Source: Nitrospiraceae bacterium
GTDB taxonomy: Bacteria; Nitrospirota; Nitrospiria; Nitrospirales; Nitrospiraceae
Direction: 5' to 3'
Assembly (NCBI GenBank): GCA_050246315.1
Contig: JBFWWG010000007.1
Span: forward strand, 96,001-160,000
DNA length: 64,000 nt
In this document: positions 9,400 through 24,043 of the stretch, in pieces
Numbering within the stretch: the first letter of the stretch is position 1
Layout: the number at the start of each line of letters is the position of its first letter
Program-made: the position numbers and the translations under genes
The notes under the pieces: generated by a model
Told to the model about the DNA's origin: nothing
What the model saw: the letters and a program-made list of their open reading frames with translations, nothing else
Database searches by the model: none

Positions 9400-10605
9400 A
9401 TGCAACAGCCTCCCACGATCTCCGTCTCCGACACGCCCTCGCCGCGAAGCCATGTGGCCGAGCAGCCGAGCAAAGCGGGACTATCCACCGATCACGCTCC
9501 GGTCTTGGAACTCCGCCGCATTTCTTGCGCCTATCAATCCAACAGGTCGGCCATCACGGACATTTCCCTGACAGTGGGAAGCGGAGAAATCGTCTGCCTG
9601 TTAGGGCCGTCCGGGTGCGGAAAGACAACAACATTGCGGGCGATCGCAGGATTCGAACCGGTCGTGGCTGGAGAGATCTATCTCGCCGGCAACCTCATGT
9701 CCTCCCCATCCGTCCAAGTGCCGACCGAAGCGCGCAGTGTCGGGATGGTATTTCAAGAGTATGCGCTGTTCCCGCATCTCCGTGTCGCGGATAACATTAC
9801 CTTCGGGCTGACCAAGCTGCCCGCCGCCCAGCGTCAAGCCCGTGTGACTGCCATGCTTGAATTGACGGGTCTGGTCGGGTTGGAGCATCGCTACCCGCAC
9901 GAACTCTCCGGCGGACAACAGCAACGAGTGGCGCTGGCTCGCGCCCTGGCCCATCATCCCGTCGTCCTGCTGCTCGACGAACCGTTCAGCAACCTGGACC
10001 CGGACATGGCCTCCAAGATGCGCCGCGAGTTGCACATCCTACTGAAACGGACCAATATCACCACCATTCTCGTGACACACGATCATGAGGCCGCGTTCGC
10101 CATCGCCGACCGCATTGCGGTCTTGAACGAAGGGCGTCTGGAGCAACTCGACACGCCGGAAATGATCTACCACCTTCCGGCGACTCGCTTCGTAGCCGAC
10201 TTTGTCGGCCATGCCGACTTTGTCCCGGGCGTCGTACAGGATGGTCGGGTGACGACGGATCTGGGTGACTTCCCCAACCACGGGAAGTTTCCTCCCGGTA
10301 CGCCGCTGGTCGTCATGATCCGGCCTGACGACATTCGCCTCTCCCCGGACCCGCAAGGGCGTGCCCGTATCCTTTCGCGTCAATTTAGGGGATCGGAGAA
10401 TCTGTACAACATTCAGTTGCCCTCAGGCCGATTCATCCACAGCATCGAGTCTTCGACCGCGATTTATCCACCGGGCACATCCGTGACCATAAGGATCGAG
10501 GCAGCGCACACGGTGCTCTTCAAGCAACAGGCGGGTCCGGCATCTGCGTCAACCGATGCGCCACAACCGCCTGCATCCGGTATGATCGATGGAGGCCCTT
10601 GTTGA
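9400..10605 (+). CDS. fbpC: Fe(III) ABC transporter ATP-binding protein
   Basis: GPSGCGKT, LSGGQQQR and LLLDEP; C-terminal TOBE-like domain. Confidence 0.92.
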   Translation: MQQPPTISVSDTPSPRSHVAEQPSKAGLSTDHAPVLELRRISCAYQSNRSAITDISLTVGSGEIVCLLGPSGCGKTTTLRAIAGFEPVVAGEIYLAGNLMSSPSVQVPTEARSVGMVFQEYALFPHLRVADNITFGLTKLPAAQRQARVTAMLELTGLVGLEHRYPHELSGGQQQRVALARALAHHPVVLLLDEPFSNLDPDMASKMRRELHILLKRTNITTILVTHDHEAAFAIADRIAVLNEGRLEQLDTPEMIYHLPATRFVADFVGHADFVPGVVQDGRVTTDLGDFPNHGKFPPGTPLVVMIRPDDIRLSPDPQGRARILSRQFRGSENLYNIQLPSGRFIHSIESSTAIYPPGTSVTIRIEAAHTVLFKQQAGPASASTDAPQPPASGMIDGGPC

Positions 10606-10741
10606 AATTCTTGGCGGTAGACATGAGTCTGGTCCTTTTTCTTGAATGTGAATTTTGAGGATCGGTCATTTCTGCTTCTTGAGTCACTTTCGAATCATCC
10701 ATCGCTCGCTCCAATAGGCGGCCGGAGCCGATAAGATCGTA

Positions 10742-10784
10742 TTGACGGAGGCGTCACACCTGTGGTATTGAAAACCGTTATCAA
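10742..10784 (+). promoter_or_regulatory. exbB promoter with overlapping Fur-box-like palindrome
   Basis: TTGACG at 10742; TGAAAAC-C-GTTATCA (7-1-7 inverted repeat) at 10769-10783 overlaps the -10 region. Confidence 0.65.
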
Positions 10785-10863
10785 CTACAGAAGTAGACTT
10801 ATGCCACGCTACGAGTCGTGTGTTTTATCATGATGGCGGTTTTGCGAATCGAGGGTACAGGCT

Positions 10864-11289
10864 ATGGAAGTCCTGAAAGAAACGGTGGATTACGGTGTGA
10901 TCGGGTTGCTCCTCGCGCTCAGTCTCTGGTGCGTAGCGGTTGCGGTGGAGCGGTGGTTGTTCTATCGCCAGGTTGACCTCGCCCAGTTTCCCAATCGGCA
11001 GGTTTTTGAGATCGCGCTCACCAAGCGCTTGGTGGTGATCGGCACGGTCGCGGCCAACGCACCGTATATCGGGCTCCTGGGAACGGTGTTGGGCATTATG
11101 TTGACCTTTCACACGATGGGGACCTCAAAAACGATCGCCGTCAGCGCCATCATGATCGGCCTGAGCTTGGCTCTCAAAGCCACCGCTGTCGGCCTGCTGG
11201 TCGCAATCCCCTGCGTCGTAATGAACAATGTGCTGAGACGGAAGGTCAGTGAGCTACTCACCCTTTATCAGGTCCAGCATGGATCGTGA
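10864..11289 (+). CDS. exbB: TonB system energizer ExbB (short form)
   Basis: APYIGLLGTVLGIM and ALKATAVGLLVAIP motifs. Confidence 0.93.
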   Translation: MEVLKETVDYGVIGLLLALSLWCVAVAVERWLFYRQVDLAQFPNRQVFEIALTKRLVVIGTVAANAPYIGLLGTVLGIMLTFHTMGTSKTIAVSAIMIGLSLALKATAVGLLVAIPCVVMNNVLRRKVSELLTLYQVQHGS

Positions 11290-11656
11290 GTTGAACCAAA
11301 TAAACGTGATCCCGCTCGTCGATGTGATGTTGGTTCTGCTGGTCATCGTGCTTACGACCGCAACCTTCATCACGACGGGGCAAATCCCGGTCGATCTGGC
11401 CAAGGCCAAAGAAGCGGGAGACAAGCAAGATGTCCCGTTGATCGTGACATTGACGGCGGACGGAGGTCTGTATTTCAACGATCAACCGGTTCAGCAGGAG
11501 GGTGGACTCAAGATTGCGATGAATACTCATCCTCGAGAATCGCTCGTCGTCGTACGGGCTGATCGTGTAACCATCCTGGACAGATTCGTGACCGTGGTGG
11601 ATGAAATCCGCGGCCTGGGGTTCCGTCAAGTCAGCCTTGAGGTCGTCAAGTCATGA
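11279..11656 (+). CDS. exbD: Biopolymer transporter ExbD
   Basis: INVIPLVDVMLVLL and VRAD motifs; the ATG overlaps the end of exbB. Confidence 0.93.
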   Translation: MDRELNQINVIPLVDVMLVLLVIVLTTATFITTGQIPVDLAKAKEAGDKQDVPLIVTLTADGGLYFNDQPVQQEGGLKIAMNTHPRESLVVVRADRVTILDRFVTVVDEIRGLGFRQVSLEVVKS

Positions 11657-12813
11657 ATTCGATGAGTCTGGCTCCTCGCGCCGGGGCGCTCCGACATACC
11701 CATGGCTGGACCGCCTCCGTGCTGGTCCATTGCTTGGCTCTCGGAGCCGCATTCGCCATGGTTACAAATCTGAAGCCGGAGCCTCCTTTGGAGATCTTCC
11801 ATTGGGAGGTTTCCACCGTGCAACCACCTGCGCCTCAGTCAGCGTCGGAACCGACCCCGCCCGCTCAAACATCGCAGCCGCCTGCTCCGAAGCAACCTCC
11901 TATGCAACCTGTACGGCATCAACCAGTCACTCAGCCCATTTCCCATGTTGTCAAAACGATTCAACCAGTCCAGCAGATTGTGAAGCAACAAAGTACAACG
12001 GCTATGCAATCCCTAACCCCGGTCACGACCTCCACGCCTCAGTCGGTTGCCCCGGCCAGCCAGGAGGTTCAGGCCGTTGAGCGAACACAAGAACTGGTGG
12101 AAATGGAGTCGGCGGAAACTGTTCCACTGGCGACTCACAGCACCGCGGAGGTCAAGGAATCTGCGGAGGTGAAAGAAGTGCCGGTGGTATCGGCACAATC
12201 CGCAAACGCCGTTGCCAACGAAGTGGTATCCGAATCCGTGACCTCGGCGGTCCCGAACCGTCCTGTGGTTTCCCAACAGGTTGTCGAGGCGCCTGTCCCG
12301 CAGGCAATCGAAGCGCCGCCTGTGAGCACATCCACGGTCACGGAGGTCGCCCAGGCTGCTCCGGTCGTCCAACAGCAGGCAGCGGTCTCGGAGGTCGCTC
12401 AGGTTGCCCCGGTCGTCCAACAGCAGGCCCCTTTCGTACAGGAGGCCAAGCTGGTCCCCCAGTCGGCGGGAGAGCCAACGGAAACCAGACAGGTTCCTGT
12501 GCGTTCCACCCCGACGACCAAGGCGGATTATGGGTGGCTTGTGGAGACCCTGTGGGGTCGCGTTGAGGAGTTGAAAAATTATCCTCACATGGCTCGTCTG
12601 AACCGATGGGAAGGCAAGGTCGTCTTGCGCGCCGTCATCAAAGATGATGGAGAACTGCTTTCGGTCGATGTCGTTTCAAGCTCCGGCCATGCCATTTTGG
12701 ACAAGGATGCCGTCGAGATCCTCCGAAAGGCATCACCGCTACACCTGAAGCATCCGCTCGGGAAGCCTCAGGTCATGGTTCAGGTGCCGATCAGCTATTC
12801 GCTGCGTCGCTAA
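11653..12813 (+). CDS. tonB: Energy transducer TonB (long linker)
   Basis: N-terminal TM helix with SxxxH; C-terminal YP..AR...EGKV...SSG..ILD domain. Confidence 0.9.
   Translation: MNSMSLAPRAGALRHTHGWTASVLVHCLALGAAFAMVTNLKPEPPLEIFHWEVSTVQPPAPQSASEPTPPAQTSQPPAPKQPPMQPVRHQPVTQPISHVVKTIQPVQQIVKQQSTTAMQSLTPVTTSTPQSVAPASQEVQAVERTQELVEMESAETVPLATHSTAEVKESAEVKEVPVVSAQSANAVANEVVSESVTSAVPNRPVVSQQVVEAPVPQAIEAPPVSTSTVTEVAQAAPVVQQQAAVSEVAQVAPVVQQQAPFVQEAKLVPQSAGEPTETRQVPVRSTPTTKADYGWLVETLWGRVEELKNYPHMARLNRWEGKVVLRAVIKDDGELLSVDVVSSSGHAILDKDAVEILRKASPLHLKHPLGKPQVMVQVPISYSLRR
12341..12428 (+). repeat. In-frame tandem duplication (48-bp period) in the TonB linker
   Basis: EVAQAAPVVQQQA / EVAQVAPVVQQQA, near-identical at the DNA level. 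Confidence 0.85.
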
Positions 12814-12971
12814 GCGCAGGCCACGATGCCGGTGCAGGAGGAGCGATCGCATCGTGCACAGTAGAAGATTGGCATTGTGACTCAAGAGTAAGAGGGTACC
12901 GCGGTCCGGGATTTCGGAGATCGCCATTCATCATCCATCATCTTGCAGCCAGTTCTGACGCGGAGGGTAAC

Positions 12972-13421
12972 GTGAAAGAGAGACAGTCTGTTCGGGCGCT
13001 GTTGATTCCAGGACTCATCCTCGCACTCGTTTGCAGTGTCACTGGGGCTGCGTTTGGTCAAGCGAAGCATGACAAAGCCTTTACTGCCACTGTGACCGAC
13101 GCACAGGGGATTGAAAGTGAGGTCAAGAATGTCCATTTCTACTGGGAGGAGAAGGTCAGCGAAACAGCGTTCGTCCCTCACGAATTGAGACACGTTCCCG
13201 TCAAGCGCGGCACGGCGACCGTCAACGTCAAATTCGACACGATCAAACAGATCGATATTAAGCCCGCCTCCGACAGCGGACTCCCGATGCTACTCATCAC
13301 CCTGAGCAACGGCAAGACCGGCGAATTTGCCTTGGCCATCGATGGGAAGTTCAAAGGGGAGTCCGACTTTGGTGAAGTAGAATTGCCTGCAGGCGGCCTC
13401 AGGAAGGTGGTCTTCAAGTGA
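12972..13421 (+). CDS. Exported hypothetical protein
   Basis: GGAGG RBS, signal peptide ending AFG|Q and a beta-rich mature part; lies between tonB and the receptor. Confidence 0.8.
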   Translation: MKERQSVRALLIPGLILALVCSVTGAAFGQAKHDKAFTATVTDAQGIESEVKNVHFYWEEKVSETAFVPHELRHVPVKRGTATVNVKFDTIKQIDIKPASDSGLPMLLITLSNGKTGEFALAIDGKFKGESDFGEVELPAGGLRKVVFK

Positions 13422-13536
13422 AGCCCCGCTTCACAAAGGGACGCCTGGGCGCCCCGAACCGTGTGGACGTCACGGCGAGCTACCCGTACTCGCTTTTTGT
13501 AGAGCTCACTCTCAGCCGTTAGACACTTTCAGGAGG

Positions 13537-15939
13537 ATGAAAACGATGTGTGAAGGGTTATCATGTAAATGGCTATTGAGAATAGGAACTAATTTTAATA
13601 TCAAGCCATGGACACGATTCGCCGCTTGGTACGTGCTCACGTTCTCATGCGTACTGATTGCACCCGCCTTCGCGCAATCGCCTTCGACGACGGAGCAGCC
13701 TGAGGAGACTTCGAAAAACGAGGCGGTTGGCTCCAAGGAGGAGGCGGTCCAGGTAAAAGAGGAGGCAGTCCAAGCAAAGGAAGAGGAAGCGCCCATCAAG
13801 ATTCCACTGACGGAAGTCATCGGCACCTCCCCTGAGGCATTGGAACATATTCCGGGCTCCGGTCGCGTCATCACGAAGGAGAGAATTGAGCAGAATCATC
13901 GTTTCTCCATCAATGAAACCCTGCGCGAGGTCCCCGGCGTCAATGTGCGGGACGAGGAGGGATTGGGAATTCGGCCGAACATCGGAATCCGCGGCCTCGA
14001 CCCGACCCGCAGCCGCAAAGTGCATATCATGGAAGACGGCGTACCGATCATGCTGATGCCCTACGCCGATCCCTCGGCCTATTATTTTCCTCCGATCTTT
14101 CGCTTCGATCGCATTGAAGTCCTGAAAGGCAGCGGCCAATTGCTCTTCGGACCGCAAAATATCGGCGGGGTGATGAACCTCATCACGCGCATGCCGCCCC
14201 CTACGCCAGAAGGGAATATTCAGTTCTGGGGCGGCAACCTCAACTATATCAACACCCATTTTGACTACGGAGGCACGTGGGGCAAGAGCGGATACTTGGT
14301 CGACTATACGCATTATCAAAGTGATGTGCCGCGCTTTACGAACACGCGGGCGAAGATCGACGACCTGACCTTCAAAACAGTGCAAGAGTTGAGCGATCGC
14401 ACTCAAATCCTGGCCAAGTTCAACTACTATCGAGAGGAATCCAGCATTGGCTACCAAGGCCTCACCGAAAGCATGTATGCACAGAATCCCCGCACGACTC
14501 CGTTCACGAACGACAATCTGGAGTTCCAGCGCATCGGCGCCCATGTCGCGGTCAATCACATGTTTACGGCCAATCTAACCTCGACCACTAATTTCTTCGG
14601 CCACTACATTGATCGGCCTTGGCAAAGGCAGTTCCAACAGGGCGTCGATGTCAACGGGAACCCTGTGGGCCCCGTCGTGCTCAGCAACAACATACCGGCC
14701 TCCTCCTATGCCGTCGTCCCGGCGGACGGTCGGTTTACCAACGCGCGGGAGTACTGGGTCTGGGGCGTCGAGCCGCGGTTCCATTATGTCCATCGGCTGT
14801 TCGGTATCAGCGCGGAGGCGGATTTCGGCGCACGGTACATGTACGAACAGGGCGACCGGATTCAGTACCGGAATCTCGCCTCCGGCGCGGGCGCCAATTT
14901 CAGTTGCTTCACCCCCCCGCCAGGCTCGACGACGTGCTTGGGGGAAAGCAATTTCCGTACGACGAACGCCTATGCCCTGTTTTTCCAAGAGCGGTTGATC
15001 ATGGGCAAATTCACCATTACTCCGGGAGTGCGGCTCGAGTACTTCAAATATACTGCGGACAACCGGTTGGCCAACAACGGCAACGGCAACTTCGGCGAAA
15101 CCGAATTCTTCGAGGCGTTGCCGGGCATCGGCGCCACATACTCCCTGAACAAGAACCATATGTTCTTTGCTGGAGCCCATCGCGGCATGTCCCCGCCATT
15201 GATCTCCGATGCGGTCACAGGGACCGGTGCCGTGGTGGACCTTGAACCCGAGTTGAGCTGGACTTACGAAATCGGCGCCAGGGGTACGCCGACTTACTGG
15301 GCCGGTTATGAACTGACCTTTTTCGAGTTGGACTTCCAAAACCAAATCGTTTCCCAGTCGGTTGCAGGGGGCGCCGGCGCGACGCAGACTAGTGCTGGCC
15401 ACACTCGACATCGCGGGATCGAATTCGCCACCAAATTGGACCTCTTGGACGCCGTGACTCGCCAAAACAATGATCAGGATCTCCTCTTCGACGTCAACTT
15501 TACCTGGGTCGCGGATGCGGAATTCAGAGGGACGCGGAACAGCTCCATCACGGGTTCCGCCCTGCTCCCCGGTGAACCCACCACGGTCAGCGTGACGGGC
15601 AACCGGCTGCCCTACGCTCCCGAGTATATGTTGACGGCCGGATTGGGCTACACCCACCGACCGTTTGGATTCAATGCCAGGCTGGAAACTCAATGTCTCA
15701 GCGACATGTACGCGGACGACCGGAACACCGTCACCCCCACGCCCAACGGACAGCGTGGGTTGATCAGCGGATGGTGCGTGCTGAACGCTGCCATCAACCA
15801 GTATGTCAAACCGATTAAGACGACATTTTTCTTTGTCGGCAAGAACATGCTGGGTCAAGACTTCATCGTGGATCGGACCCGAGGGATTTATTCGGGAATG
15901 CCGGCGCTCTGGCAGGCCGGAGCCAAATGGACGTTCTGA
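13537..15939 (+). CDS. TonB-dependent receptor, FecA-like
   Basis: Plug motifs (LREVPGVNVRDEEGLGIRPNIGIRG, RIEVLKGSG..LFGPQNIGGV.N) and a C-terminal Phe. The start may be 13546. Confidence 0.93.
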   Translation: MKTMCEGLSCKWLLRIGTNFNIKPWTRFAAWYVLTFSCVLIAPAFAQSPSTTEQPEETSKNEAVGSKEEAVQVKEEAVQAKEEEAPIKIPLTEVIGTSPEALEHIPGSGRVITKERIEQNHRFSINETLREVPGVNVRDEEGLGIRPNIGIRGLDPTRSRKVHIMEDGVPIMLMPYADPSAYYFPPIFRFDRIEVLKGSGQLLFGPQNIGGVMNLITRMPPPTPEGNIQFWGGNLNYINTHFDYGGTWGKSGYLVDYTHYQSDVPRFTNTRAKIDDLTFKTVQELSDRTQILAKFNYYREESSIGYQGLTESMYAQNPRTTPFTNDNLEFQRIGAHVAVNHMFTANLTSTTNFFGHYIDRPWQRQFQQGVDVNGNPVGPVVLSNNIPASSYAVVPADGRFTNAREYWVWGVEPRFHYVHRLFGISAEADFGARYMYEQGDRIQYRNLASGAGANFSCFTPPPGSTTCLGESNFRTTNAYALFFQERLIMGKFTITPGVRLEYFKYTADNRLANNGNGNFGETEFFEALPGIGATYSLNKNHMFFAGAHRGMSPPLISDAVTGTGAVVDLEPELSWTYEIGARGTPTYWAGYELTFFELDFQNQIVSQSVAGGAGATQTSAGHTRHRGIEFATKLDLLDAVTRQNNDQDLLFDVNFTWVADAEFRGTRNSSITGSALLPGEPTTVSVTGNRLPYAPEYMLTAGLGYTHRPFGFNARLETQCLSDMYADDRNTVTPTPNGQRGLISGWCVLNAAINQYVKPIKTTFFFVGKNMLGQDFIVDRTRGIYSGMPALWQAGAKWTF

Positions 15940-15989
15940 GCGGAATCGGCAAGTCGAACCATGAGCTTCGGACAAATAAAGGACTGAAC

Positions 15990-16175
15990 ATGATGACCCA
16001 ACGGGCCGTCAGAGACAGCCACCAGACCGACGACAGCGAGGATGTGCGTTGCGACTGCGGCCAGCTTGTGGCCCGATGGGTGGGCGACGACATCCAGATC
16101 AAATGCAAGCGGTGCCGGCGTCTTGTGCGGATCGCGGTGCCGAGATCCCGATCCTCCCCATCGGGCAAGTCCTGA
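15990..16175 (+). CDS. Com-family (phage Mu Com-like) zinc-ribbon protein
   Basis: RCDCGQLVA...IQIKCKRCRRLV matches the Com pattern RC..C.kLl......IeIkCpRC; AAAGGA RBS. Confidence 0.7.
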   Translation: MMTQRAVRDSHQTDDSEDVRCDCGQLVARWVGDDIQIKCKRCRRLVRIAVPRSRSSPSGKS

Positions 16176-16243
16176 CCGTCGGGAGACGAGGCGAGCTTCC
16201 TCGAACGGTCAACATTCGACACGAGGCCAGAGGTTTCAAACCC

Positions 16244-16282
16244 AGAGCCCACGATCGCGTGATGCGATCGTGGGCTTTTTTG
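16244..16282 (+). terminator. Intrinsic terminator in the leader of the HD-GYP gene
   Basis: Perfect 13-bp stem AGCCCACGATCGC/GCGATCGTGGGCT with a 5-nt loop and a T-run. Confidence 0.85.
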
Positions 16283-16306
16283 TCATGCGAGATCACGGAG
16301 AGGGAC

Positions 16307-17011
16307 ATGCCCATGTCACAGTACACCCCTGGATTCCCCATCGGAAGGGGCAACCTGCTCAGCATCTTGGAAGACTTGAAAGCACTCGATTTTGGGCCTC
16401 CCTCGTGCGCCATTCACTGGGCCGCGATCTCGCGTGTGGTCCGGGAGCTGGCCGCCCTGATCGATCGCATCTCTCCGCGACATCAAGGACACGGTCGCCG
16501 CACAGCCGACTTCGCTCACCGTCTCGGTTTGACTTTGGGTCTTCCATGGGACGAGCTCCGAGATCTGGCGCTGGCCTCACACCTCCACGATATCGGCCTC
16601 TTGGCGCTTCCGCCCGACCTCGTCAAAGAACATCGCGAACTCTCTCCGCAGGAATTCGTCCGCTACCAAAACCATCCTCGTTCCGGGGCCGAGCTCCTGG
16701 AGTCGATTTCTTTCCTCAAGCGCCCGGCGCTCTGGATCGCTCACCATCATGAGCGGTGGGACGGCTGTGGCTATCCCTACGGGTTGCGCGGCGAATACAT
16801 CCCGTTGGGTGCCAGGATACTGGCCATTGCAGACACCTTTGATCTGTATCTGCACCAAGCTGGCCACGCTCCCGAATCAAACATCCTGGCGGCCACGTCC
16901 CTGTTGCGGGTCGTAGCCGGTTCGCAACTGGACCCTGAGCTTGTCGAGCAGTTTCTCCAAATTGTCTCCTCACTTACATTTTCTGATCCCACACTTTTGG
17001 GATCTCATTGA
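16307..17011 (+). CDS. Stand-alone HD-GYP domain phosphodiesterase
   Basis: LHDIG and HHERWDGCGYP.GL.GE.IPLGARILAIADTFD; RBS before the ATG at 16307. Confidence 0.88.
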   Translation: MPMSQYTPGFPIGRGNLLSILEDLKALDFGPPSCAIHWAAISRVVRELAALIDRISPRHQGHGRRTADFAHRLGLTLGLPWDELRDLALASHLHDIGLLALPPDLVKEHRELSPQEFVRYQNHPRSGAELLESISFLKRPALWIAHHHERWDGCGYPYGLRGEYIPLGARILAIADTFDLYLHQAGHAPESNILAATSLLRVVAGSQLDPELVEQFLQIVSSLTFSDPTLLGSH

Positions 17012-17147
17012 AGATACGGCCCGGGAACATGGACATGATCGACAGCGGTTCGACAGCTTCATTCAATTTATTCGGCCACGAAGGATTCACCTACCCGGCA
17101 TGCACGGGTATAGGTGACGTCGGCTATCACCGAGGGAGGGGACTTCC

Positions 17148-18908
17148 ATGCTGTATCATTCGCCCACGCATTTGACATCAGGACCGTCCAATTGGGCCCG
17201 CTCGACTCTGTCCGGATTGCTCCTTGTTCTCCTTCTGACCGGCTGCGGTTCCGACTCCGACAACGCCAGCTCGACCGGTCAGACCAACCCCGCTCCAACC
17301 GGTACGGCAGGCGCCGAGGAAGATGTGGGCGAACGGCTGTTCGTGGAGACTCGGTTCGCCCGCGCTTTCAAGCTCTTTCTGGACGGGGGAGGGAAAGTCA
17401 ACGACCCGCTTCCTACAGGTGACCCGGTGATGAACGAAACACAGACCACCGGCCAGCCGCTGCCCGGCCCATTCGCAGGGATGTCCATGAACTGCCGCGC
17501 CTGCCACCTGGTGGACGAACAGGTCGGCGTCGCCGGAGGCGGCATGCGGACCTATGCGGATTTTGCGAGGCGGAGCCCCGTTCCGCAGGCGTCTGACGGC
17601 CATGTCACGAGTCCGAGACATGCTCCGCCGCTCGTCGGCGCCTCGGTGGATCGACCGGTTGGGACCCTATTTCACCTAGACGGAGAGTTCGCAACCATGG
17701 AAGATCTGGTTGCAGGCACCTTCACGGACCGCAATTTCGGATGGATGCCGGGGCAGAAAGCCGAGGCCATCCAACAACTGGCTCGGGTGATTCGCGAGGA
17801 CGACGGCAAGGGCAATCTCGCGCAGGAGTTTGACGGGCAATCCTATCGCATGCTACTTGCGGGGACCGACCCCGCCATCCCTGAAGATTTTCGGCTGCCA
17901 TCCGACTTCCGCATCAATGTGGACTCGAGCACGGATGAGGAGGTCTTCAATGCCGTGGTGCGGCTCGTCAGCGCCTATGTCACAGGACTCGAATTTTCCC
18001 AAGAGGACGAAGACGGCGTTCCGATCCGTTCGCCATTCGATATCTTTCTGGAGGTCAACAATCTTCCGCCGCAGCCTGACCAGAATGAACTCCCGCTCGA
18101 CTATAGCCGCCGGCTCCGCGGGCTGGTGGCTGGGCTCCAGAATCCAATATTCGTTCAGGCCAACCCCAATCGATCTGATGGCAAGTTCCAATTTCACGAC
18201 CAACCATTCCAGTTCGGTGCCAAGGAACTGGAGGGCTTGAAAATCTTTCTGAGTGAACCTCAGACGGCCACGGCATCACCGGAAGAATTGGCCCAGGGTA
18301 AAATCGGCAACTGCGTTCGCTGTCACGCCGCCCCTCATTTCACCGATTTCAAACTCCACAACACCGGCGTCAACCAAAAGGAATACGACGACCTGCACGG
18401 TGCAGGTCAATTTGCGCAGCTTGCGATACCATCTCTCTCGGCCAGGAAGGCCGCTCCGCAGCAATATCTGCCGGCAACCCATGAGCATCCCACCTATCAG
18501 GGGCCGTTCCGCTCTCCGCCATCGGCTTCGAATCCGGCACTGACGGACCTCGGCCTCTGGAACATCTTCGCCAACCCCGACATGCCCAATCCGCAAGCGA
18601 CGATCCGGGCGATCCTCTGTGAGGATCAGCCTTCTCCCTGCCCTTCGGACGACGTCCTGCTCCCGTTGACAATTGCTCGCTTCAAGACTCTCAGCCTCCG
18701 CGACCTCGGCCACTCGGCCCCCTATATGCACAACGGGCAACTCGACACTCTGGACGATATTGTGACCGCCTATCGGAACTCGTCCAACGCCGCGCGTGGC
18801 GGCACCCTCCGGAACCATGATCCGCTCCTTCTTGGGATTGCATTGACCGCAAGTGATGTCTCCCCGTTGGTCGCATTTCTTCATTCGCTCAATGAGGACT
18901 ACCAGTGA
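17148..18908 (+). CDS. Diheme cytochrome c peroxidase/MauG-family lipoprotein
   Basis: Lipobox LLTGC; two CxxCH motifs (CRACH, CVRCH); FKT.SLRDL..SAPYMHNG. Confidence 0.85.
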   Translation: MLYHSPTHLTSGPSNWARSTLSGLLLVLLLTGCGSDSDNASSTGQTNPAPTGTAGAEEDVGERLFVETRFARAFKLFLDGGGKVNDPLPTGDPVMNETQTTGQPLPGPFAGMSMNCRACHLVDEQVGVAGGGMRTYADFARRSPVPQASDGHVTSPRHAPPLVGASVDRPVGTLFHLDGEFATMEDLVAGTFTDRNFGWMPGQKAEAIQQLARVIREDDGKGNLAQEFDGQSYRMLLAGTDPAIPEDFRLPSDFRINVDSSTDEEVFNAVVRLVSAYVTGLEFSQEDEDGVPIRSPFDIFLEVNNLPPQPDQNELPLDYSRRLRGLVAGLQNPIFVQANPNRSDGKFQFHDQPFQFGAKELEGLKIFLSEPQTATASPEELAQGKIGNCVRCHAAPHFTDFKLHNTGVNQKEYDDLHGAGQFAQLAIPSLSARKAAPQQYLPATHEHPTYQGPFRSPPSASNPALTDLGLWNIFANPDMPNPQATIRAILCEDQPSPCPSDDVLLPLTIARFKTLSLRDLGHSAPYMHNGQLDTLDDIVTAYRNSSNAARGGTLRNHDPLLLGIALTASDVSPLVAFLHSLNEDYQ

Positions 18909-19051
18909 CCCACGCAAGTCAGTTCTCAGAACCACCGAGACCCGCATGGAACGGGCCACGAGGAGGCGGAGTTGTACCCCTCCGCCTCCTGGGCAGGGGG
19001 CTCCACCCCTCCTGCGGGTCCCCTGCCCACCATATTCAGGAGTGATCAAGC

Positions 19052-19651
19052 ATGGAAGAGTATCGCCGACAAGCTGATCAATCCCTGTCGCCCATCTTGG
19101 AAGGGACTGCGGTGCGGAAAGCGCCCCTTGAGTCCCCTCCTCAGCGAACACATGTTTGGCGTAGGAGGTTCGACGACTTGCACCCTCAGTCCCCGGAATG
19201 GACAGCGTGGCGAGATGAATCGTACACCGGACGGAAACTCCAACACCCGGCCTCCCGGTCTACGATGCATTTGCCAGGCAACGTTTCGCCTCAGGGCCTT
19301 GCCCCGACGACGTTGCGAGAGCGCATTCGGGTATTCATGATCGACAACCTCCATCGGGGGTTGACCTTGAAGGATCTGTCTGTATTTCTCGGATACTCGG
19401 AGAAATACTGCTCCGAATTGTTTCTAAAGATCATGGGAGAGCCGTTCTCGCGTTGGCGAGAACGGCTCCGAGTCCATGAAGCGAGACGCTTGTTGGCAAC
19501 CACTGCGACGTCGATGACGGACATCGCGGAATCGCTGGGCTTCTCGGATCAATTTTCGTTCAGCCACTTCTTCAAGAAAGCGGTCGGCTGTTCACCGCGA
19601 ATGTTCCGGACTCGATCGGTCAATCCGGCTCATCCACGAAGCTCCTGCTGA
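19052..19651 (+). CDS. AraC-family regulator (HTH only, short N-terminus)
   Basis: IAESLGFSDQFSFSHFFKKAVGCSP. The start is uncertain. Confidence 0.8.
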   Translation: MEEYRRQADQSLSPILEGTAVRKAPLESPPQRTHVWRRRFDDLHPQSPEWTAWRDESYTGRKLQHPASRSTMHLPGNVSPQGLAPTTLRERIRVFMIDNLHRGLTLKDLSVFLGYSEKYCSELFLKIMGEPFSRWRERLRVHEARRLLATTATSMTDIAESLGFSDQFSFSHFFKKAVGCSPRMFRTRSVNPAHPRSSC

Positions 19652-19825
19652 CTATCGCCAGAAACGGGAGTTACACCTCATGCCCTCACGAGGTGAGGTA
19701 ATGCTCCCTCGTCCGGCGCCCGGTAGAGACATGAAGGACCCGGCCACTCATTGCGAGGCGGCGCCGGCTCCGTGTACGAACCGCTCGCCTGGCCAGTCGC
19801 CGGTTCTCATTCCGCTCTTCCTCGT

Positions 19826-20203
19826 ATGGCAGGTGATTGGCTGGTGATCGTTTTCTTACTCTTTGCACCCTGAATCAACCATGGGACAAGACGGTGCTCG
19901 CGATCAGGTCCCCAACCGCACTCCGCCCATGACTACGCGGTCACCCGGCGCCACGCATTCGTCGCTTCCACAGGAACCGGACGGCTCGGTCAATTGATAA
20001 TCCCGCCGGGGATCGGGGAAAAGAGGGCCGAGCCTTCCCGGTCCGCACCGACCGATGTGGATGCCTCGTTTCGCCAGGTACCAGACCGTCTGCGCATGGC
20101 CAAGGTCGCCCATGCGAACGACAGTGCCGAAACGGTTTCGGCGCAAGTCGAGATGACCACTATCTGCGCCCCGTTCGAAGGAACGGCACTCACGTTCGTG
20201 TAA
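19826..20203 (+). pseudogene. Degenerate copy of the HlyD/MacA-type adaptor gene
   Basis: HDYAVTRRHAFVASTGTGRL and ICAPFEGT align with SGYVVAQRQASVASKGTGRL and IRAPFDGT of 20826..22085; in-frame TGA at 19871; truncated. Confidence 0.7.
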
Positions 20204-20271
20204 ATGGGCGAGACTAGTCGGGCGGGGGAGATGCCTCCTCGTAGCGCAGTGAGGCGTACAGGAAGATCCCT

Positions 20272-20829
20272 ATGGCAAGAATGCCGCAACCAGAGATCGA
20301 CTCAGACCGCACCCTGTCTTCGACAACCGAATGGCGTCGCCAGGTTCCGCCATGGGCTGCCAAGCTTGCTCACGTCAGCTCGGAGAAGGAACTGCTGGAG
20401 GCCGTCGCAGACCTCTGCAACTTCCGCCATGACGTGCCGTTCTGGGATGACGACACGGATCCGGAAGCCTCTCTCGCGGCGCGCATGGCAGCCTTCATTC
20501 ACGAGAACCTCCATAAGGGCTTGACCCTGAAGGTCCTCGCTCAATTCCTTGGGTATTCGGAAAAATACTGTTCTGAGCTCTTTCGCGACATCATGGGTGA
20601 ATCCTTTTCCTCTCATGTGAAGCGGCAGCGGCTCATCCATGCGACACGACTACTCAGCTCGACCGACAAGGGAATGGCGGAGATTGCCCGTGCTATTGGA
20701 TTTAGCGACCAATTCGCCTTCAGTCATTTCTTCAAGCGGGCGACAGGACTCTCACCCATCCAAATACGGACCCATGACAACGCAGGTTCTCGACAACGAA
20801 TGAGGAATCGCCGAACGGTGACACCATGA
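20272..20829 (+). CDS. AraC-family regulator (paralog of 19052..19651)
   Basis: NLHKGLTLK.L..FLGYSEKYCSELF is shared with the upstream copy; IGFSDQFAFSHFFK. Confidence 0.85.
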   Translation: MARMPQPEIDSDRTLSSTTEWRRQVPPWAAKLAHVSSEKELLEAVADLCNFRHDVPFWDDDTDPEASLAARMAAFIHENLHKGLTLKVLAQFLGYSEKYCSELFRDIMGESFSSHVKRQRLIHATRLLSSTDKGMAEIARAIGFSDQFAFSHFFKRATGLSPIQIRTHDNAGSRQRMRNRRTVTP

Positions 20830-22085
20830 CGGGAACGCCGATCCGCGACGCCGATGTGTCGGTCTTGACGTTGCCCCGAGATGAACCTCCTCATGGCCAT
20901 CGCACCTGCCGGACGCGCCTCGTCTGGACCATTGGGGTGCTCGCTGTCTGTTTGTGCATGATACTCCTGTACTGGTATGCGCCCTTCTTGTCCGCACGGC
21001 CGGAAGTGAGCACGGCACCGGTTCGGACTGTTGGCGGACAGGCGTCAAGCGCCCCGTTGATTGCCAGCGGCTATGTGGTGGCACAACGACAAGCATCGGT
21101 GGCATCCAAGGGTACCGGCCGTTTGGAATACCTTGGTGTGACGATAGGCAGTCGAGTCAGAACCGGAGATGTGGTCGCACGAGTCCAGCAAGACGATATC
21201 CGAGCGCTTCATCAGCAGGCTCGCGCACGTCTCGACGTGGCCAAGGCGGCCCTGATCAACGCCCAAGCCGAACGGCGTGACGCCCGGCAAAACTTTGCCC
21301 GGGCCGAGGCTCTGCTTCCAAACCAATACATCTCCCAGGCCGAAGTCGATATGGCTCAAAATCGCCTGCACCGTGCGGAGGCAGCGGTTCGCTCGTCCGA
21401 GGCAGCCATCACGGCTGCGGAGGCCGACGTCCAGACCGCCGATGTCATGCTGGAGAACACCGTGATCCGGGCCCCCTTTGACGGGACGGTTCTGAAGAAG
21501 TTCGCCGAGATCGGCGAGGTGGTTGCCCCTATGGCCAGCTCGGCTGGTTCACGGGGGGCCGTCGTTCTCATCGCGGATACGGCCTCCCTGGCCGTGGAAA
21601 CAGAAATTTCTGAAGCCTTGATCGCTCAAATCTCACCGAACCAACAAGCCGACATCGTTCTGGACGCGTTTCCCAACATACATTATCCGGCCGTCGTTGA
21701 GCAGGTTGTGCCCACCGCCGACCGCTCCAAAGGGACGGTCCTGGCCAAAGTGCGATTCAACAAGCTCGACGATCGAGTGCTGCCCGAAATGAGCGCGAAG
21801 GTCTCGTTTTCTCCCGCAGGCTCATCAGCGGATCCCGAGCCGGTGCGGATGTTTGTCCCCTCATCCTCGCTCGTGAGGACGAACGGCCAAACAGTACTTT
21901 ACGTACTCGAGGACGAAACTGCTCGCGAGGTTCCGGTTGAGGTGGTGGCCGAACAGGGGAGCGACAGTGAGATTCGCGGCTCGCTCGCATCGCCCGCCAC
22001 CGTCATTCTTGCCCCGCCCCGGTCGCTCACATCCGGATCCCGCGTTCGTTTCCACCCCGGCCACCAGGAGATAGCCCCACGATGA
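20826..22085 (+). CDS. Efflux periplasmic adaptor (HlyD/MacA family)
   Basis: TM anchor, lipoyl halves, coiled coil, IRAPFDG and LPEMSAKV. Confidence 0.9.
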   Translation: MTGTPIRDADVSVLTLPRDEPPHGHRTCRTRLVWTIGVLAVCLCMILLYWYAPFLSARPEVSTAPVRTVGGQASSAPLIASGYVVAQRQASVASKGTGRLEYLGVTIGSRVRTGDVVARVQQDDIRALHQQARARLDVAKAALINAQAERRDARQNFARAEALLPNQYISQAEVDMAQNRLHRAEAAVRSSEAAITAAEADVQTADVMLENTVIRAPFDGTVLKKFAEIGEVVAPMASSAGSRGAVVLIADTASLAVETEISEALIAQISPNQQADIVLDAFPNIHYPAVVEQVVPTADRSKGTVLAKVRFNKLDDRVLPEMSAKVSFSPAGSSADPEPVRMFVPSSSLVRTNGQTVLYVLEDETAREVPVEVVAEQGSDSEIRGSLASPATVILAPPRSLTSGSRVRFHPGHQEIAPR

Positions 22086-22750
22086 GTCAATCCGTCATCG
22101 AGTTCCACCGCGTCAATAAGTCTTACCGTCGAGGAGAACAGGAAGTGCCGGTGTTGCGCGATTTCAACCTGTCGATCCCCCCCACACAGTTTCTCGCCAT
22201 TATGGGACCATCTGGCTCGGGAAAGACCACGATCTTGAATCTGATCGCCGGGTTGGACCGTCCAAGCCAGGGCGTCATCCACGCCGCCGGCCTTACGGTC
22301 TCCGAACAACGGGAAACAGAATTGGCTCGATGGCGAGCACGGCATATCGGGTTCGTCTTTCAATTCTACAATCTCATTCCGGTTCTCACCGCGGCGGAAA
22401 ACGTCGAACTGCCGCTCCTGCTCAGCACCCTGACCAAACGAGAGCGGGCCAAACATGTGCAGGCGGCGCTCGGGCTGGTTGGTCTGAGCGATCGCGCGCA
22501 CCACTATCCGCGCCAGTTGTCCGGCGGTCAGGAACAACGGGTCGGGATCGCGCGCGCCATTGTGAGCGATCCCACCATTCTGCTGGCCGATGAGCCGACC
22601 GGCAACCTCGATCGGGATGCGGCCGACGCCGTCATGGGTCTCCTGACCCGCCTGCATCGGGACCTCAAGAAAACGATCCTGATGGTGACTCATGATCCGC
22701 GCGCCGCCGAGCACGCGCACAGCATCCTCCAACTGGACAAAAGCAGGTGA
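22082..22750 (+). CDS. ABC transporter ATP-binding protein (LolD/MacB type)
   Basis: GPSGSGKT, LSGGQEQR and LADEPTGNLD. Confidence 0.93.
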   Translation: MSQSVIEFHRVNKSYRRGEQEVPVLRDFNLSIPPTQFLAIMGPSGSGKTTILNLIAGLDRPSQGVIHAAGLTVSEQRETELARWRARHIGFVFQFYNLIPVLTAAENVELPLLLSTLTKRERAKHVQAALGLVGLSDRAHHYPRQLSGGQEQRVGIARAIVSDPTILLADEPTGNLDRDAADAVMGLLTRLHRDLKKTILMVTHDPRAAEHAHSILQLDKSR

Positions 22751-22758
22751 ATTAACGA

Positions 22759-23928
22759 ATGACGCTGAGTACATTCATATTGCGCAATGCAAGACGGCAT
22801 CCCCTTCGAGTGGCGCTGACCGCCTTGGGGATCGCCACCGTTATTCTCGCGTTCAATCTCGTCGTCACCACGGTTCGCGCCTGGTACGCAGGCGTCGAGG
22901 CTTCCGTCCCGAACAGACTGATTACCCGCCACGCCGCGTCGCTCTCGATCCACCTGCCGCTGGCCTATCGGAATCGTATTGCTTCGCTCGACGGCGTGAC
23001 CGGCGTCACCTTCGCCAATTGGTTTGGAGGCGTCTATCGGGACGCCAAGGGCTTTTTCCCCCAATTCGCCGTCGACCCCGGTTCGTTTCTCGATCTCCAC
23101 GAAGAAGTGCGGATCACGACAGACGAGCGACAGGCGTTCCTCGCCGACCGCCGAGGCTGCTTGGTCGGTCGCCGGCTTGCTGCGCAATACGGGTGGAAGA
23201 CCGGCGATGTCATTACGCTCAAAGGTACGCTGTATCCGGGCGACTGGGATTTTGTCGTCCGAGGCATCTACCACGGGGCCGATTCCGGAGCCGATGAAAC
23301 CTGGATGTTGATCCGCTGGGACTATATGAATGAGCGACGACGACAAGTGGATCCCGACCGCTCCAACACGGTGGGCTGGTACATCATTCGCGTAGCCGAT
23401 CCGATTCAAGCCGGTAATATTTCGAGATCGGTGGATGCAGAGTTCGCCAACTCCATGGCGGAGACCAGGACGGAAACCGAACAGGCTTTCCAGATGGGCT
23501 TTGTCGCAATGTCGGGGGCTATCATCGGCGCCTTGAAAGTTCTCGCCATTGTCCTCAACGGCATCACTCTCCTCGTTTTGGCCAACACCCTCGTGATGGC
23601 AGTGCGCGAGCGGACGAAGGAACTCGCCGTGATGCGGACCTTGGGATTCCGCTCATCACACCTGATTGCGCTCGTCACGGGGGAAGCCCTGGTGATAGCC
23701 GGACTGGGAGCGGGGTTGGGGATCCTCCTCACGATCCCCGCGAATCATCTCTACGCGGTACTGGTCGAGTCCAAGCTCGGTAATTTCTTTCAACACATGT
23801 ACCTGTATCCCACCACTCTGTTGTTGAGCGCAGTGGTGACGTTCGGTATCGCCGTCGGCGCATCGGTCGTGCCCGTTGCCGTGGTGTTGCGCGCGAAGGT
23901 AGCGCAGGGCCTTCGTCATGTCGGGTAG
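22759..23928 (+). CDS. ABC transporter permease (MacB/FtsX family)
   Basis: RN..R...R..LT start, periplasmic domain and VRERTKELAVMRTLGF. Confidence 0.9.
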   Translation: MTLSTFILRNARRHPLRVALTALGIATVILAFNLVVTTVRAWYAGVEASVPNRLITRHAASLSIHLPLAYRNRIASLDGVTGVTFANWFGGVYRDAKGFFPQFAVDPGSFLDLHEEVRITTDERQAFLADRRGCLVGRRLAAQYGWKTGDVITLKGTLYPGDWDFVVRGIYHGADSGADETWMLIRWDYMNERRRQVDPDRSNTVGWYIIRVADPIQAGNISRSVDAEFANSMAETRTETEQAFQMGFVAMSGAIIGALKVLAIVLNGITLLVLANTLVMAVRERTKELAVMRTLGFRSSHLIALVTGEALVIAGLGAGLGILLTIPANHLYAVLVESKLGNFFQHMYLYPTTLLLSAVVTFGIAVGASVVPVAVVLRAKVAQGLRHVG

Positions 23929-24043
23929 TCGGTCCTGCCATGTTGGTTCCGTTTTCTTGTTCGGTCATGAACGCACATCGCTTCCCGCTCGAAGCACAAT
24001 GCAAGCGAGGGTTGTTCTAGAAGTCATTTCGAAACCCTATGAC

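Follow-up and report, generated by a model that had tools for sequence, protein, structure and literature searches.

A Com-like zinc-ribbon protein and a conserved RNA hairpin as a candidate protein-operated RNA switch in iron-acquisition clusters of Nitrospirales

Gene order at the locus and the small zinc-ribbon protein

The window analyzed here is a 64,000-nt stretch of contig JBFWWG010000007.1 from a Nitrospiraceae bacterium. It carries a cluster of iron-uptake genes in which a very small gene, encoding a protein with four cysteines, is located between a TonB-dependent receptor gene and a gene for a stand-alone HD-GYP protein. The features of the cluster are as follows.

10864-11289, plus strand: exbB (Pfam MotA_ExbB, 2.6e-26)
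11249-11656, plus strand: exbD (Pfam ExbD, 1.3e-22)
11653-12813, plus strand: tonB (Pfam TonB_C, 2e-16)
13537-15939, plus strand: TonB-dependent receptor gene (Pfam Plug, 4.3e-19; TonB_dep_Rec_b-barrel, 1.6e-39)
15990-16175, plus strand: gene of the 61-aa Com-like zinc-ribbon protein P0001 (ATG at 15990, stop at 16175)
16176-16306, plus strand: 131-nt leader between the small gene and the HD-GYP gene
16225-16249, plus strand: candidate sensor RNA element, from the sequence (model R1, 40.5 bits at 16221-16253)
16244-16281, plus strand: intrinsic terminator from the scan, left arm AGAGCCCACGATCGC, then six T
16297-16304, plus strand: Shine-Dalgarno sequence GGAGAGGG, preceding the HD-GYP ATG
16307 or 16313 (ATG) to 17011 (stop), plus strand: stand-alone HD-GYP gene (Pfam HD_5, 4.1e-35; HD, 1.3e-12)
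17148-18908, plus strand: gene of a 586-aa protein with a MauG/MbnH-like di-haem C-terminal part (NCBIfam)
19052-19651, plus strand: AraC-type regulator gene 1 (Pfam HTH_18, 2.3e-22)
20272-20829, plus strand: AraC-type regulator gene 2 (Pfam HTH_18, 2.2e-21)

The exbB-exbD-tonB genes (10864-12813) are likely the start of the transcription unit, and a Fur-box-like sequence at 10764-10782 agrees at 14 of 19 positions with the Fur consensus. The receptor is matched by NCBIfam siderophore-receptor models with scores under their cut-offs, and its stop codon is separated from the small gene by 50 nt. For the HD-GYP gene, the second ATG (16313) is aligned with the start used in a relative of the same genus; the translated product, a predicted c-di-GMP phosphodiesterase, displays the HD and HHERWDGCGYP signatures. 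The 586-aa protein found no family in Pfam, and its NCBIfam matches (MbnH-family, 1.3e-14; MauG, 2.4e-9) are confined to residues 510-583, both under cut-off. Its gene, named as that of a peroxidase in the original prediction, is a possible further target of read-through. In other species the AraC gene type is located after HD-GYP, or directly after the small gene and the motif (L080, L039, L062); L080 is the cultured relative N. moscoviensis, in which the gene order is the same as here. The original prediction had placed a 61-aa CxC...CxxC reading frame directly 3' of the receptor gene and had seen no phage genes nearby, and both observations hold: the annotated region from 9400 to 24000 contains iron-uptake, regulator and transporter genes only, and the neighbors, which are TonB-system, receptor, HD-GYP, AraC and ABC-export genes, show neither a phage setting nor a modification gene of the mom type downstream.

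The cysteines of the small protein are arranged as C21-x-C23 and C39-x-x-C42 in the translation. All four are invariant in its family, which is characterized by the signature RCxCGxLxA[RK]...KCKRC[RK]R, and the first knuckle, CxC, is one residue shorter than that of Mu Com. The AlphaFold model consists of a three-stranded core (pLDDT 83-89) with low-confidence ends. That this is a domesticated Com protein, as was originally proposed, is borne out at the level of homology. An alignment of the 81-sequence family with Mu Com by hhalign reached a probability of 93.2% (E 3e-7) over 31 columns and Com residues 3-35, and BLASTP of P0001 against Com gave E 5e-5 at 37% identity. The phage families phrog_6417 (translational regulator) and phrog_13819 (gpCom) matched 18/20 and 12/20 family members, respectively, and relatives carry the source annotation 'FluMu protein Com'. 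Matches to Pfam PF10122 (Zn_ribbon_Com) were weaker: P0001 scored 19 bits (E 9.5e-4), under the 22.9-bit cut-off, and 7/20 relatives matched at E<=0.1, none of them reported over the curated cut-off. The family search of the genome itself gave 18.3 bits. No NCBIfam family was found with the small protein, the best sequence match of the family profile in the PDB (E 0.028) is not meaningful, and Foldseek of the model against the PDB gave nothing at E<=0.001 beyond generic zinc-ribbon-like rows at weaker values. In a tblastn search of 50,697 phage records, ten records were returned, all with E>=3, and in the best of them the match lies close to a genome end of a Mu-like Pseudomonas phage. Judged by these sequence comparisons, the 61-aa protein is a chromosomal, non-phage and divergent member of the Com zinc-finger family.

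The RNA element and the terminator in the leader

The candidate sensor element is a short hairpin with an internal loop. Its outer helix is formed by GGC (16225-27) and GCC (16247-49), the internal loop places CAGA (16228-31) opposite CAGA (16243-46), and the inner helix pairs GGUU (16232-35) with AACC (16239-42) around the loop UCA. Two CCAGAG direct repeats flanking a palindrome had been described here, and they were found at 16227-16232 and 16242-16247, around GGTTTCAAACC at 16232-16242. The pairing is conserved among relatives: 198/198 cells are paired in alignment A3 and 99.0% of 506 cells (87 distinct rows) in alignment A4, compared with at most 56.9% in slid controls, where it should be noted that A3 was selected to suit a single pairing register and A4 was obtained by fitting to the model, and both therefore lean towards the structure. 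Compensatory changes on both sides occur at 3 (A3) and 4 (A4) of the 6 pairs, G-U pairs occur as well, and the outer helix pairs vary as GC, AU and GU. A rigid 3+4+hairpin+4+3 scan missed the GGAC-type copies, in which pairing is one position off register, and these were recovered by the model alignment. Protein and boxes also vary together: ARW/RCRR proteins go with CNGAGCC boxes in 53/58 cases, and AK/RCKR proteins with CCGNG[TC]C or a variant in 17/18. A scan of 12500-19500 against Rfam 15 at E<=1 returned only an unrelated weak match to ar7 (18949-19086).

The target of Mu Com provides a point of reference. SELEX with the Com zinc finger yielded GAG(N)2CC / CC(N)2-3GAG motifs, mostly bipartite, in which GA is crucial and the boxes flank a variable stem of 3-4 nt that is always closed by a C-G pair (PMC6483171). 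The element described here resembles this published target, with two CC-A-GAG boxes around a variable 3-4-bp stem and an essentially invariant G-C closing pair of the inner stem (GC in 33/33 rows of A3 and 86/87 of A4), whereas the spacing in many copies is CC-N1-GAG instead of the N2-3 of the SELEX motif (PMC6483171).

The terminator overlaps this element. It has a perfect 13-bp stem (A16246-C16258 with G16264-T16276), a 5-nt loop and a T-run reaching to 16281, and is extended to 16 pairs (16244-16278) in the scan. The first bases of its left arm belong to the 3' CAGA box, and the arm takes in the GCC of the outer helix, in accordance with the overlap described earlier between the second repeat and the arm of a perfect 13-bp terminator. 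The scan returned 6 terminator-like sites against 6.0 expected, a count meaningless alone, and the site at 16244-16278 is by far the longest of the six. No sigma-70-like promoter was found by the scan on the plus strand between 15990 and 16307. The distance from the T-run to the first HD-GYP ATG is 25 nt, as had been estimated for the 131-nt leader, which leaves no room for a separate HD-GYP promoter after the terminator; the presence of such a promoter is what the original prediction had named as speaking against it. With 25 nt between U-run and ATG and no promoter-like site, the HD-GYP gene depends on read-through.

Folding placed the full terminator in the minimum free energy (MFE) structure (-33.7 kcal/mol). 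When the sensor structure was forced (-24.1 kcal/mol), the terminator stem was cut to 9 bp and detached by 3 nt from the U-run, so that the full terminator is better by ~9.6 kcal/mol. The leader has the features of an attenuator: a G+C-rich hairpin and a U-run between co-oriented genes, with no promoter following, and a competing fold, also conserved, that uses some of the terminator's own bases. Parts of the stretch are present in 17 RNA runs as contigs, a form uninformative on termination versus read-through. The receptor, small and HD-GYP genes are covered by 100%-identical contigs in four RNA runs, none of the RNA contigs listed bridges 16218-16457, and one 37-kb contig with 171 differences originates from a relative or from DNA.

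Distribution and expression platforms in Nitrospirota

Among the genomes searched, the small gene is confined to Nitrospirota. The original prediction had proposed to look for a conserved repeat and terminator after non-phage Com homologs, and such an arrangement is common: by a simple pattern, repeat, hairpin and terminator were found 9-95 nt downstream of the small gene in 64/83 gene instances, and in 46/54 terminator-class instances the terminator stem measures 9 bp or more and its left arm reaches into the motif, with its start 4-7 nt inside it. In 61 relatives, 42/51 model hits are located within 5 kb of the small gene and on its strand. The other 9/51 are kilobases away or unlinked, which shows that the presence of the gene in cis is no requirement for the motif. 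In 80 oriented loci, 99/99 hits lie on the strand of the small gene.

Gene and motif also occur in the same genomes. In the order sample the motif is present in 29/43 genomes with the gene and 1/18 without it, and in the phylum sample (151 genomes) the gene is present in 34/35 motif genomes, the motif being found in 1/111 gene-less genomes; since both features belong to one lineage and the genomes are kin, this co-occurrence is weaker than the raw counts. The two cases of a motif without a detected gene involve a frameshifted copy, which is the situation in the order-sample exception, or a nearby contig end. In the genome studied here, searches by pattern and models found the window copy and a divergent copy of the ribosome-binding-site (RBS) class after a paralog on contig C5. 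A further match in this genome, at E ~1, was unconvincing.

The element is joined to three platforms: it overlaps a terminator, lies just before an RBS, or is located in Fur-box leaders far from the small gene. The genes flanking it are always of the iron regulon, including HD-GYP, TonB receptors, AraC regulators, ExbB, porin-like proteins and siderophore synthesis. The terminator form precedes HD-GYP, TonB-receptor, siderophore-synthesis and other genes, and the RBS form precedes a porin-like gene. In L038, L040, L061, L083, L046 and L072, motif and terminator are found just upstream of the small gene itself. MFE folding of RBS-class leaders gave ACCAC/GUGG or AAACC/GGUUU pairing in some of 9 sequences, not all, and a helix sequestering the Shine-Dalgarno sequence in this class is a tentative suggestion of the folding model. 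The original prediction of a terminator switch at the HD-GYP gene is partly supported, all those of its parts that are open to sequence analysis having been borne out, but its frame was too narrow, as the element is regulon-wide, uses RBS and start-overlapping platforms, and occurs in copies away from the gene.

Proposed mechanism, alternatives and comparison with known systems

The conserved pair of Com-like protein and RNA hairpin looks like a new protein-operated RNA switch. The best reading of the observed anatomy, conservation, covariation, linkage and homology is that the protein, when bound to the hairpin, would block the terminator or unmask the RBS. At the HD-GYP gene we infer, with a fair degree of probability, that the Com-like protein binds the hairpin and permits read-through under iron control, and the same probability attaches, jointly with this whole explanation, to the ~25-nt element being the RNA target of the protein. 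Without the protein, the 13-16-bp terminator would form and transcripts of the receptor and the small gene would end at 16281. Once accumulated, the protein would bind the nascent element and hold the 3' box and the GCC of the outer helix; the terminator would then be cut off from its U-run, and RNA polymerase would continue into HD-GYP and probably into the genes after it. The same protein-RNA pair would be used throughout the iron-acquisition clusters of Nitrospirales in three forms, with a terminator, with an RBS platform and ahead of the small gene. That the effect goes in the direction of read-through is derived by logic: behind the terminator the downstream genes have no space for a promoter, and termination must be relieved in some way. 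The units appear to be transcribed from Fur-box promoters, which would make the switch a second layer of the control by iron starvation, one that acts with a delay or at a threshold. It is doubtful that the Com-like protein is itself the metal sensor, with a four-cysteine site whose folding and RNA binding would require a load of iron or zinc; iron control may be supplied more simply by the upstream Fur-like boxes.

Several other explanations have to be weighed against this one. The Com-like protein may bind the element and act negatively, by stabilizing termination, blocking translation, autoregulating or stabilizing its own mRNA. The copies upstream of the small gene fit autoregulation, folding strongly favors the terminator, and the small gene's own transcript would stop there. 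However, downstream genes that have an RBS and no promoter of their own argue against negative action, the conserved boxes overlap the 5' arm of the terminator in the usual geometry of an antiterminator, and Mu Com, in the excerpt of PMC6483171, is an activator that opens an inhibitory structure; negative action seems unlikely. A riboswitch or ion sensor of small size that acts independently of any protein, the small gene being just another member of the iron regulon, appears quite improbable as an explanation of the element. Such a sensor might well be joined to several platforms, lie in 5' leaders right after Fur-box-like promoters and far from the small gene, and precede that gene in some species, but the conserved part is only ~25 nt with two helices of 3-4 bp, it matches no Rfam family, its boxes resemble the known Com target (PMC6483171), the protein and motif subtypes go together, and the motif is nearly absent from genomes in which the gene was not detected (1/18 and 1/111).

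It has also been considered that motif and terminator form a 3'-end module, either a stability element or a small RNA derived from the 3'-UTR whose CCAGAG boxes pair with other mRNAs. In the terminator class, a strong terminator closes the element in every case and a coding gene directly precedes it, and 16218 is where contigs from two metatranscriptome runs of one study end, which is at most a weak hint. RBS-class copies without a terminator and immediately before a start codon do not fit this explanation, nor do the copies in 5' leaders after promoters or the promoterless downstream genes, and covarying helix arms with fixed loop boxes are more typical of a protein site, which makes a 3'-end module very improbable. 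A DNA operator for a transcription factor such as one of the neighboring AraC proteins is hardly credible: AraC genes are frequent neighbors and the element includes a small palindrome, but its strand-specificity is strict, the flanking boxes are direct and not inverted repeats, pairing is kept through G-U pairs that are relevant in RNA only, and the overlap is with terminators and RBS regions, not with promoters. The antitermination reading given above is preferred.

Nitrospira are the main nitrite oxidizers of soils, waters and treatment plants, and the proposed mechanism gives a testable function to a small protein that is labelled 'hypothetical' or 'FluMu Com' in them. The Com family would thereby gain its first member with a defined chromosomal regulon, and for the first time control of intrinsic terminators would be proposed for a zinc-ribbon RNA-binding protein. 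In nitrifiers that form biofilms, the mechanism would link the acquisition of iron with the turnover of c-di-GMP. Genome-engineering scaffolds already make use of the Mu Com hairpin as an RNA tag, and pairs of a ~60-aa protein and a ~25-nt RNA that have diversified naturally could be useful as orthogonal sets.

A literature search at the level of titles and abstracts found no published account of a system of a Com-like protein and an RNA element, and the closest systems differ in various respects. In animals, a short conserved hairpin (IRE) occurs across iron-metabolism mRNAs and is read by one RNA-binding protein (IRP). The likeness, a hairpin spread over iron genes and one proposed RNA-binding protein, is an analogy only: there is no sequence or structural relation, and the iron dependence suggested here comes from gene context and Fur-like boxes. 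If the metal-sensor reading were true, the hairpins over iron-uptake, siderophore and c-di-GMP genes would make up a bacterial counterpart of IRP/IRE, acting mainly through transcription termination. The imperfect hairpin of ~30 nt (RAT) that is bound by BglG, SacY and LicT shares bases of its 3' part with the 5' arm of a terminator, and its binding prevents termination. The antitermination by hairpin binding proposed here would work alike, but through a zinc ribbon instead of a CAT-PRD protein and without sugar-PTS control, and the protein is not of that family.

In Pseudomonas, com-like small genes are located directly upstream of llpA bacteriocin, tailocin cargo and levansucrase genes, and their regulatory role remains to be explored according to the excerpt of PMC6240691. 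They are similar to the gene described here in being non-phage or domesticated small genes placed directly before a cargo gene, but phylum and cargo differ, and no RNA element, terminator or regulon is described in that excerpt (PMC6240691). The closest likeness in organization is to Com and mom of phage Mu: a protein of ~60 aa that starts with a C4 zinc finger, a putative one in the present case, and continues into a tail that is disordered in Com and modelled with low confidence here, its gene lying just before the gene that it regulates or is proposed to regulate, and a short hairpin with CC..GAG boxes beside an inhibitory RNA structure (PMC6483171), the hairpin being a candidate target in the present case. 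In contrast to Mu, the first knuckle is CxC and the Pfam cut-off is missed, neither a phage nor a mom gene is present, and the surrounding genes form chromosomal iron-acquisition clusters; inhibition would come mainly from a transcription terminator, where Mu has a hairpin at the start codon, and there are multiple candidate targets per genome, some of them in trans.

The small-gene locus and its leader

The sequence of 15700-17400 was read, and the anatomy in the original prediction matches base for base. The locus comprises:

Upstream of the receptor and small gene: exbB, exbD and tonB
13537-15939: TonB-dependent receptor gene, Plug and barrel domains
15990-16175: small gene, a 61-aa ORF with C-x-C and C-x-x-C pairs, starting 50 nt past the receptor gene
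16225-16249: RNA element GGC-CAGA-GGUU-UCA-AACC-CAGA-GCC, two CCAGAG boxes flanking a 4-bp hairpin, within the 131 nt after the ORF
From 16244 or 16246: terminator, 13-16-bp stem followed by a run of six T
16307 or 16313 to 17011: stand-alone HD-GYP gene (HD_5, E 4e-35) with a Shine-Dalgarno (SD) sequence ahead
Downstream of the HD-GYP gene: MauG/MbnH-like di-haem protein, two AraC regulators and an HlyD/ABC/FtsX exporter

The HD-GYP gene was expected to lack its own promoter, and the promoter scan found no sigma-70-like site between it and the small gene; the spacing from the U-run to the HD-GYP gene, 25 nt, is too short for a promoter. RNA-seq data for the locus were available as contigs only, which decide nothing on termination or read-through. 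In two metatranscriptome runs of one study, contigs over 15775-16218 both stop at 16218, 7 nt short of the element, and no loose end is listed there, possibly because the repeat disturbed assembly.

Further downstream, the 586-aa protein at 17148-18908 matches MauG/MbnH di-haem models only within its last ~75 residues; no Pfam family was assigned to it, and no match explained the N-terminal 500 residues. The order AraC, AraC, HlyD, ABC ATPase, FtsX permease at 19052-23928 is the AraC-HlyD-ABC-FtsX order of two relatives' loci (L039, L062), where the AraC gene directly follows the small gene and motif, which is not so in the window.

A Com-like protein and a conserved RNA element

The sole Pfam match of the small protein, Zn_ribbon_Com, lies below the cut-off (19 vs 22.9 bits) and is reached at E<=0.1 in 7 of 20 relatives. 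Stronger tests agree on homology: a profile of 81 family sequences aligned with the entire zinc finger of Mu Com (sequence from NC_000929) at 93.2% probability, pairwise BLASTP against Mu Com gave E 5e-5, and the PHROG families "translational regulator" and gpCom were matched by 18/20 and 12/20 members, respectively. As predicted, the small protein is, judged from sequence comparison, a relative of Com. In its AlphaFold model a three-stranded zinc ribbon forms the core (pLDDT 83-89) and the ends are floppy; structure and PDB searches with the protein or family added nothing on the relationship. At E<=0.001 the family has 748 protein clusters, named, where a name is given, "hypothetical" or "FluMu protein Com", and its invariant signature is RCxCGxLxA[RK]...KCKRC[RK]R. 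The best tblastn matches in phage records (E about 3, non-significant) fall in unannotated DNA near the genome ends of Mu-like Pseudomonas phages, where com sits in Mu.

Among 61 genomes from the window's order, 43 carry the small gene; order-level gene and motif tallies include one genome flagged unpublished (G009), on which alone no claim hangs. A scan of species-representative genomes gave 402 stretches encoding it, and the best 80, N. moscoviensis and N. lenta among them, are titled nearly all as Nitrospira, Nitrospiraceae, Nitrospirales, Nitrospirota or Ca. Manganitrophaceae. Of 151 genomes sampled evenly across the phylum, 40 carry it; these represent four families, and 37 of them belong to the window's order. 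The window's own genome carries a second paralog, of the AK subtype (contig C5:165302-165484). A divergent element, CTAGAG-GAC...GTC-CCAGCAG, lies in the 70 nt that follow, ahead of an SD and the gene of a signal-peptide protein that begins with a coiled coil.

Conservation of repeat, hairpin and terminator after non-phage Com homologs was confirmed. The same arrangement recurs across genera in the DNA 3' of each small gene, and a simple pattern places the motif 9-95 nt past the gene in 64 of 83 instances. Those without a match are sequence variants (family f2/genus g35 and Manganitrophaceae), a contig end, a degenerate 5' box (L061) or an overlap with an AraC gene. In the terminator class, where motif and terminator overlap, a terminator stem of 9 bp or more begins 4-7 nt inside the motif in 46/54 instances. 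The inner helix varies (GGUU/AACC, GACU/AGUC, GGAC/GUCC, GGC/GCC, GGAU/AUCC, GAC/GUC) while the loop boxes are unchanged; outer-helix pairs are GC, AU and GU. In an alignment of 33 sequences, picked for one pairing register, which favours structure, 198/198 cells are paired, with both-sided changes at 3/6 pairs. Among 114 model matches (87 distinct), an alignment fitted to the motif model and thus also leaning towards structure, 99.0% of cells are paired, with both-sided changes at 4/6; sliding the partner columns gave at most 56.9%. No Rfam family matched the element. These alignments show the element to be a conserved, structured RNA. In Ca. Manganitrophaceae (L047, L092, L096), a variant element, GGCTAGCGG / GGCTCGCGG ... 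CCCCACGCC, which our motif models miss, comes after the small gene, then a terminator and exbB.

Linkage, downstream genes and iron context

Among 51 motif-model matches in the 61 relatives, 22 follow a small gene within 400 nt and 16 at a distance of 0.4-5 kb; 4 are upstream of one and 9 unlinked, several of these last in fragmented assemblies. The motif is on the small gene's strand in 99/99 matches (80 oriented loci), and protein subtypes track motif subtypes. Gene-bearing genomes carry the motif far more often than gene-less ones (29/43 vs 1/18 in the order, 27/30 vs 0/7 in the window's family), and in the phylum sample 34/35 motif genomes carry the gene and 1/111 gene-less genomes the motif, counts that overstate independence because the sampled genomes are related and both gene and motif are lineage-limited. 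The phylum-sample exception has its motif 1.7 kb from a contig start; that of the order has a frameshifted small-gene copy 3.4 kb upstream of the motif. This copy (L107, about 834-1024, complete genome) is a pseudogene or carries a sequencing error: it is split over two frames, the motif being intact.

The first gene past small gene and motif at 80 loci, proportions biased because these are the loci closest to the query, encodes HD-GYP (32), a TonB-dependent receptor (12), AraC (9), ExbB (2), an STN-domain protein (1) or a weak porin match (1), and 23 have no Pfam family, 18 of them 470-550-aa ORFs of the same group as the porin match. In the RBS class there is no terminator, and the motif lies 20-45 nt ahead of an SD and porin-like gene; at AraC loci it adjoins the start codon. 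Model-found copies not behind a small gene stand ahead of an HD-GYP gene farther along the same operon (3.3-3.5 kb downstream), directly upstream of the small gene itself or, unlinked, in leaders of genes for siderophore synthesis, multicopper oxidase, cytochrome c and HD-GYP, two directly behind Fur-box-like sequences.

The neighbourhoods are iron-acquisition clusters throughout. Scored against a 19-base consensus, Fur-like boxes occur within 250 nt upstream of 24/81 small genes, every RBS-class one included, vs 72/1776 background windows. A Fur-box-like sequence, GATATTAATAATCGTTCTC (15/19), nearly identical between loci, lies ~100 nt upstream of the Cys core in RBS-class loci L086, L093, L094, L100, L101, L038, L040 and L083; a weaker sequence (14/19), overlapping a possible -10 region, precedes exbB in the window (10764-10782). 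ApbE (flavin transferase) and FMN_bind-domain genes beside the porin-like operon (L093 2635-3832, 6278-6943; L086 2799-3980; L038 2135-3349) hint that the regulon includes an iron reductase of the periplasm or membrane that depends on flavin.

Proposed switch and comparison with Com

The minimum-energy fold of 16221-16290 is the full terminator (-33.7 kcal/mol); holding the element's two helices leaves a 9-bp stem, 3 nt off the U-run (-24.1 kcal/mol). Since the element is transcribed before the terminator, the small protein, a product of the same transcript, would presumably capture the boxes on nascent RNA, and the terminator could then not complete. RAT-binding antiterminators likewise prevent terminator completion. 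We infer the binding, the direction of effect (antitermination by the small protein) and the physiological signal. In the RBS class, by analogy, the SD may be freed as by Mu Com; folds are only suggestive of such release. Iron control probably enters at the promoter, to which the RNA switch would add a second layer.

Literature searches found no account of this protein and element in Nitrospirota. A review places com-like genes ahead of Pseudomonas bacteriocin genes and calls their role unexplored (PMC6240691). In Nowacka et al. (2019; PMC6483171), SELEX with a Com zinc finger yielded GAG(N)2CC / CC(N)2-3GAG, mostly bipartite and flanking a variable 3-4-nt stem with an invariant closing C-G pair. 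Com binding protects the GA dinucleotide, and Com presumably opens the neighbouring hairpin that inhibits translation of mom. The Nitrospirota element shares the layout of the SELEX motif, with spacing off by one residue.
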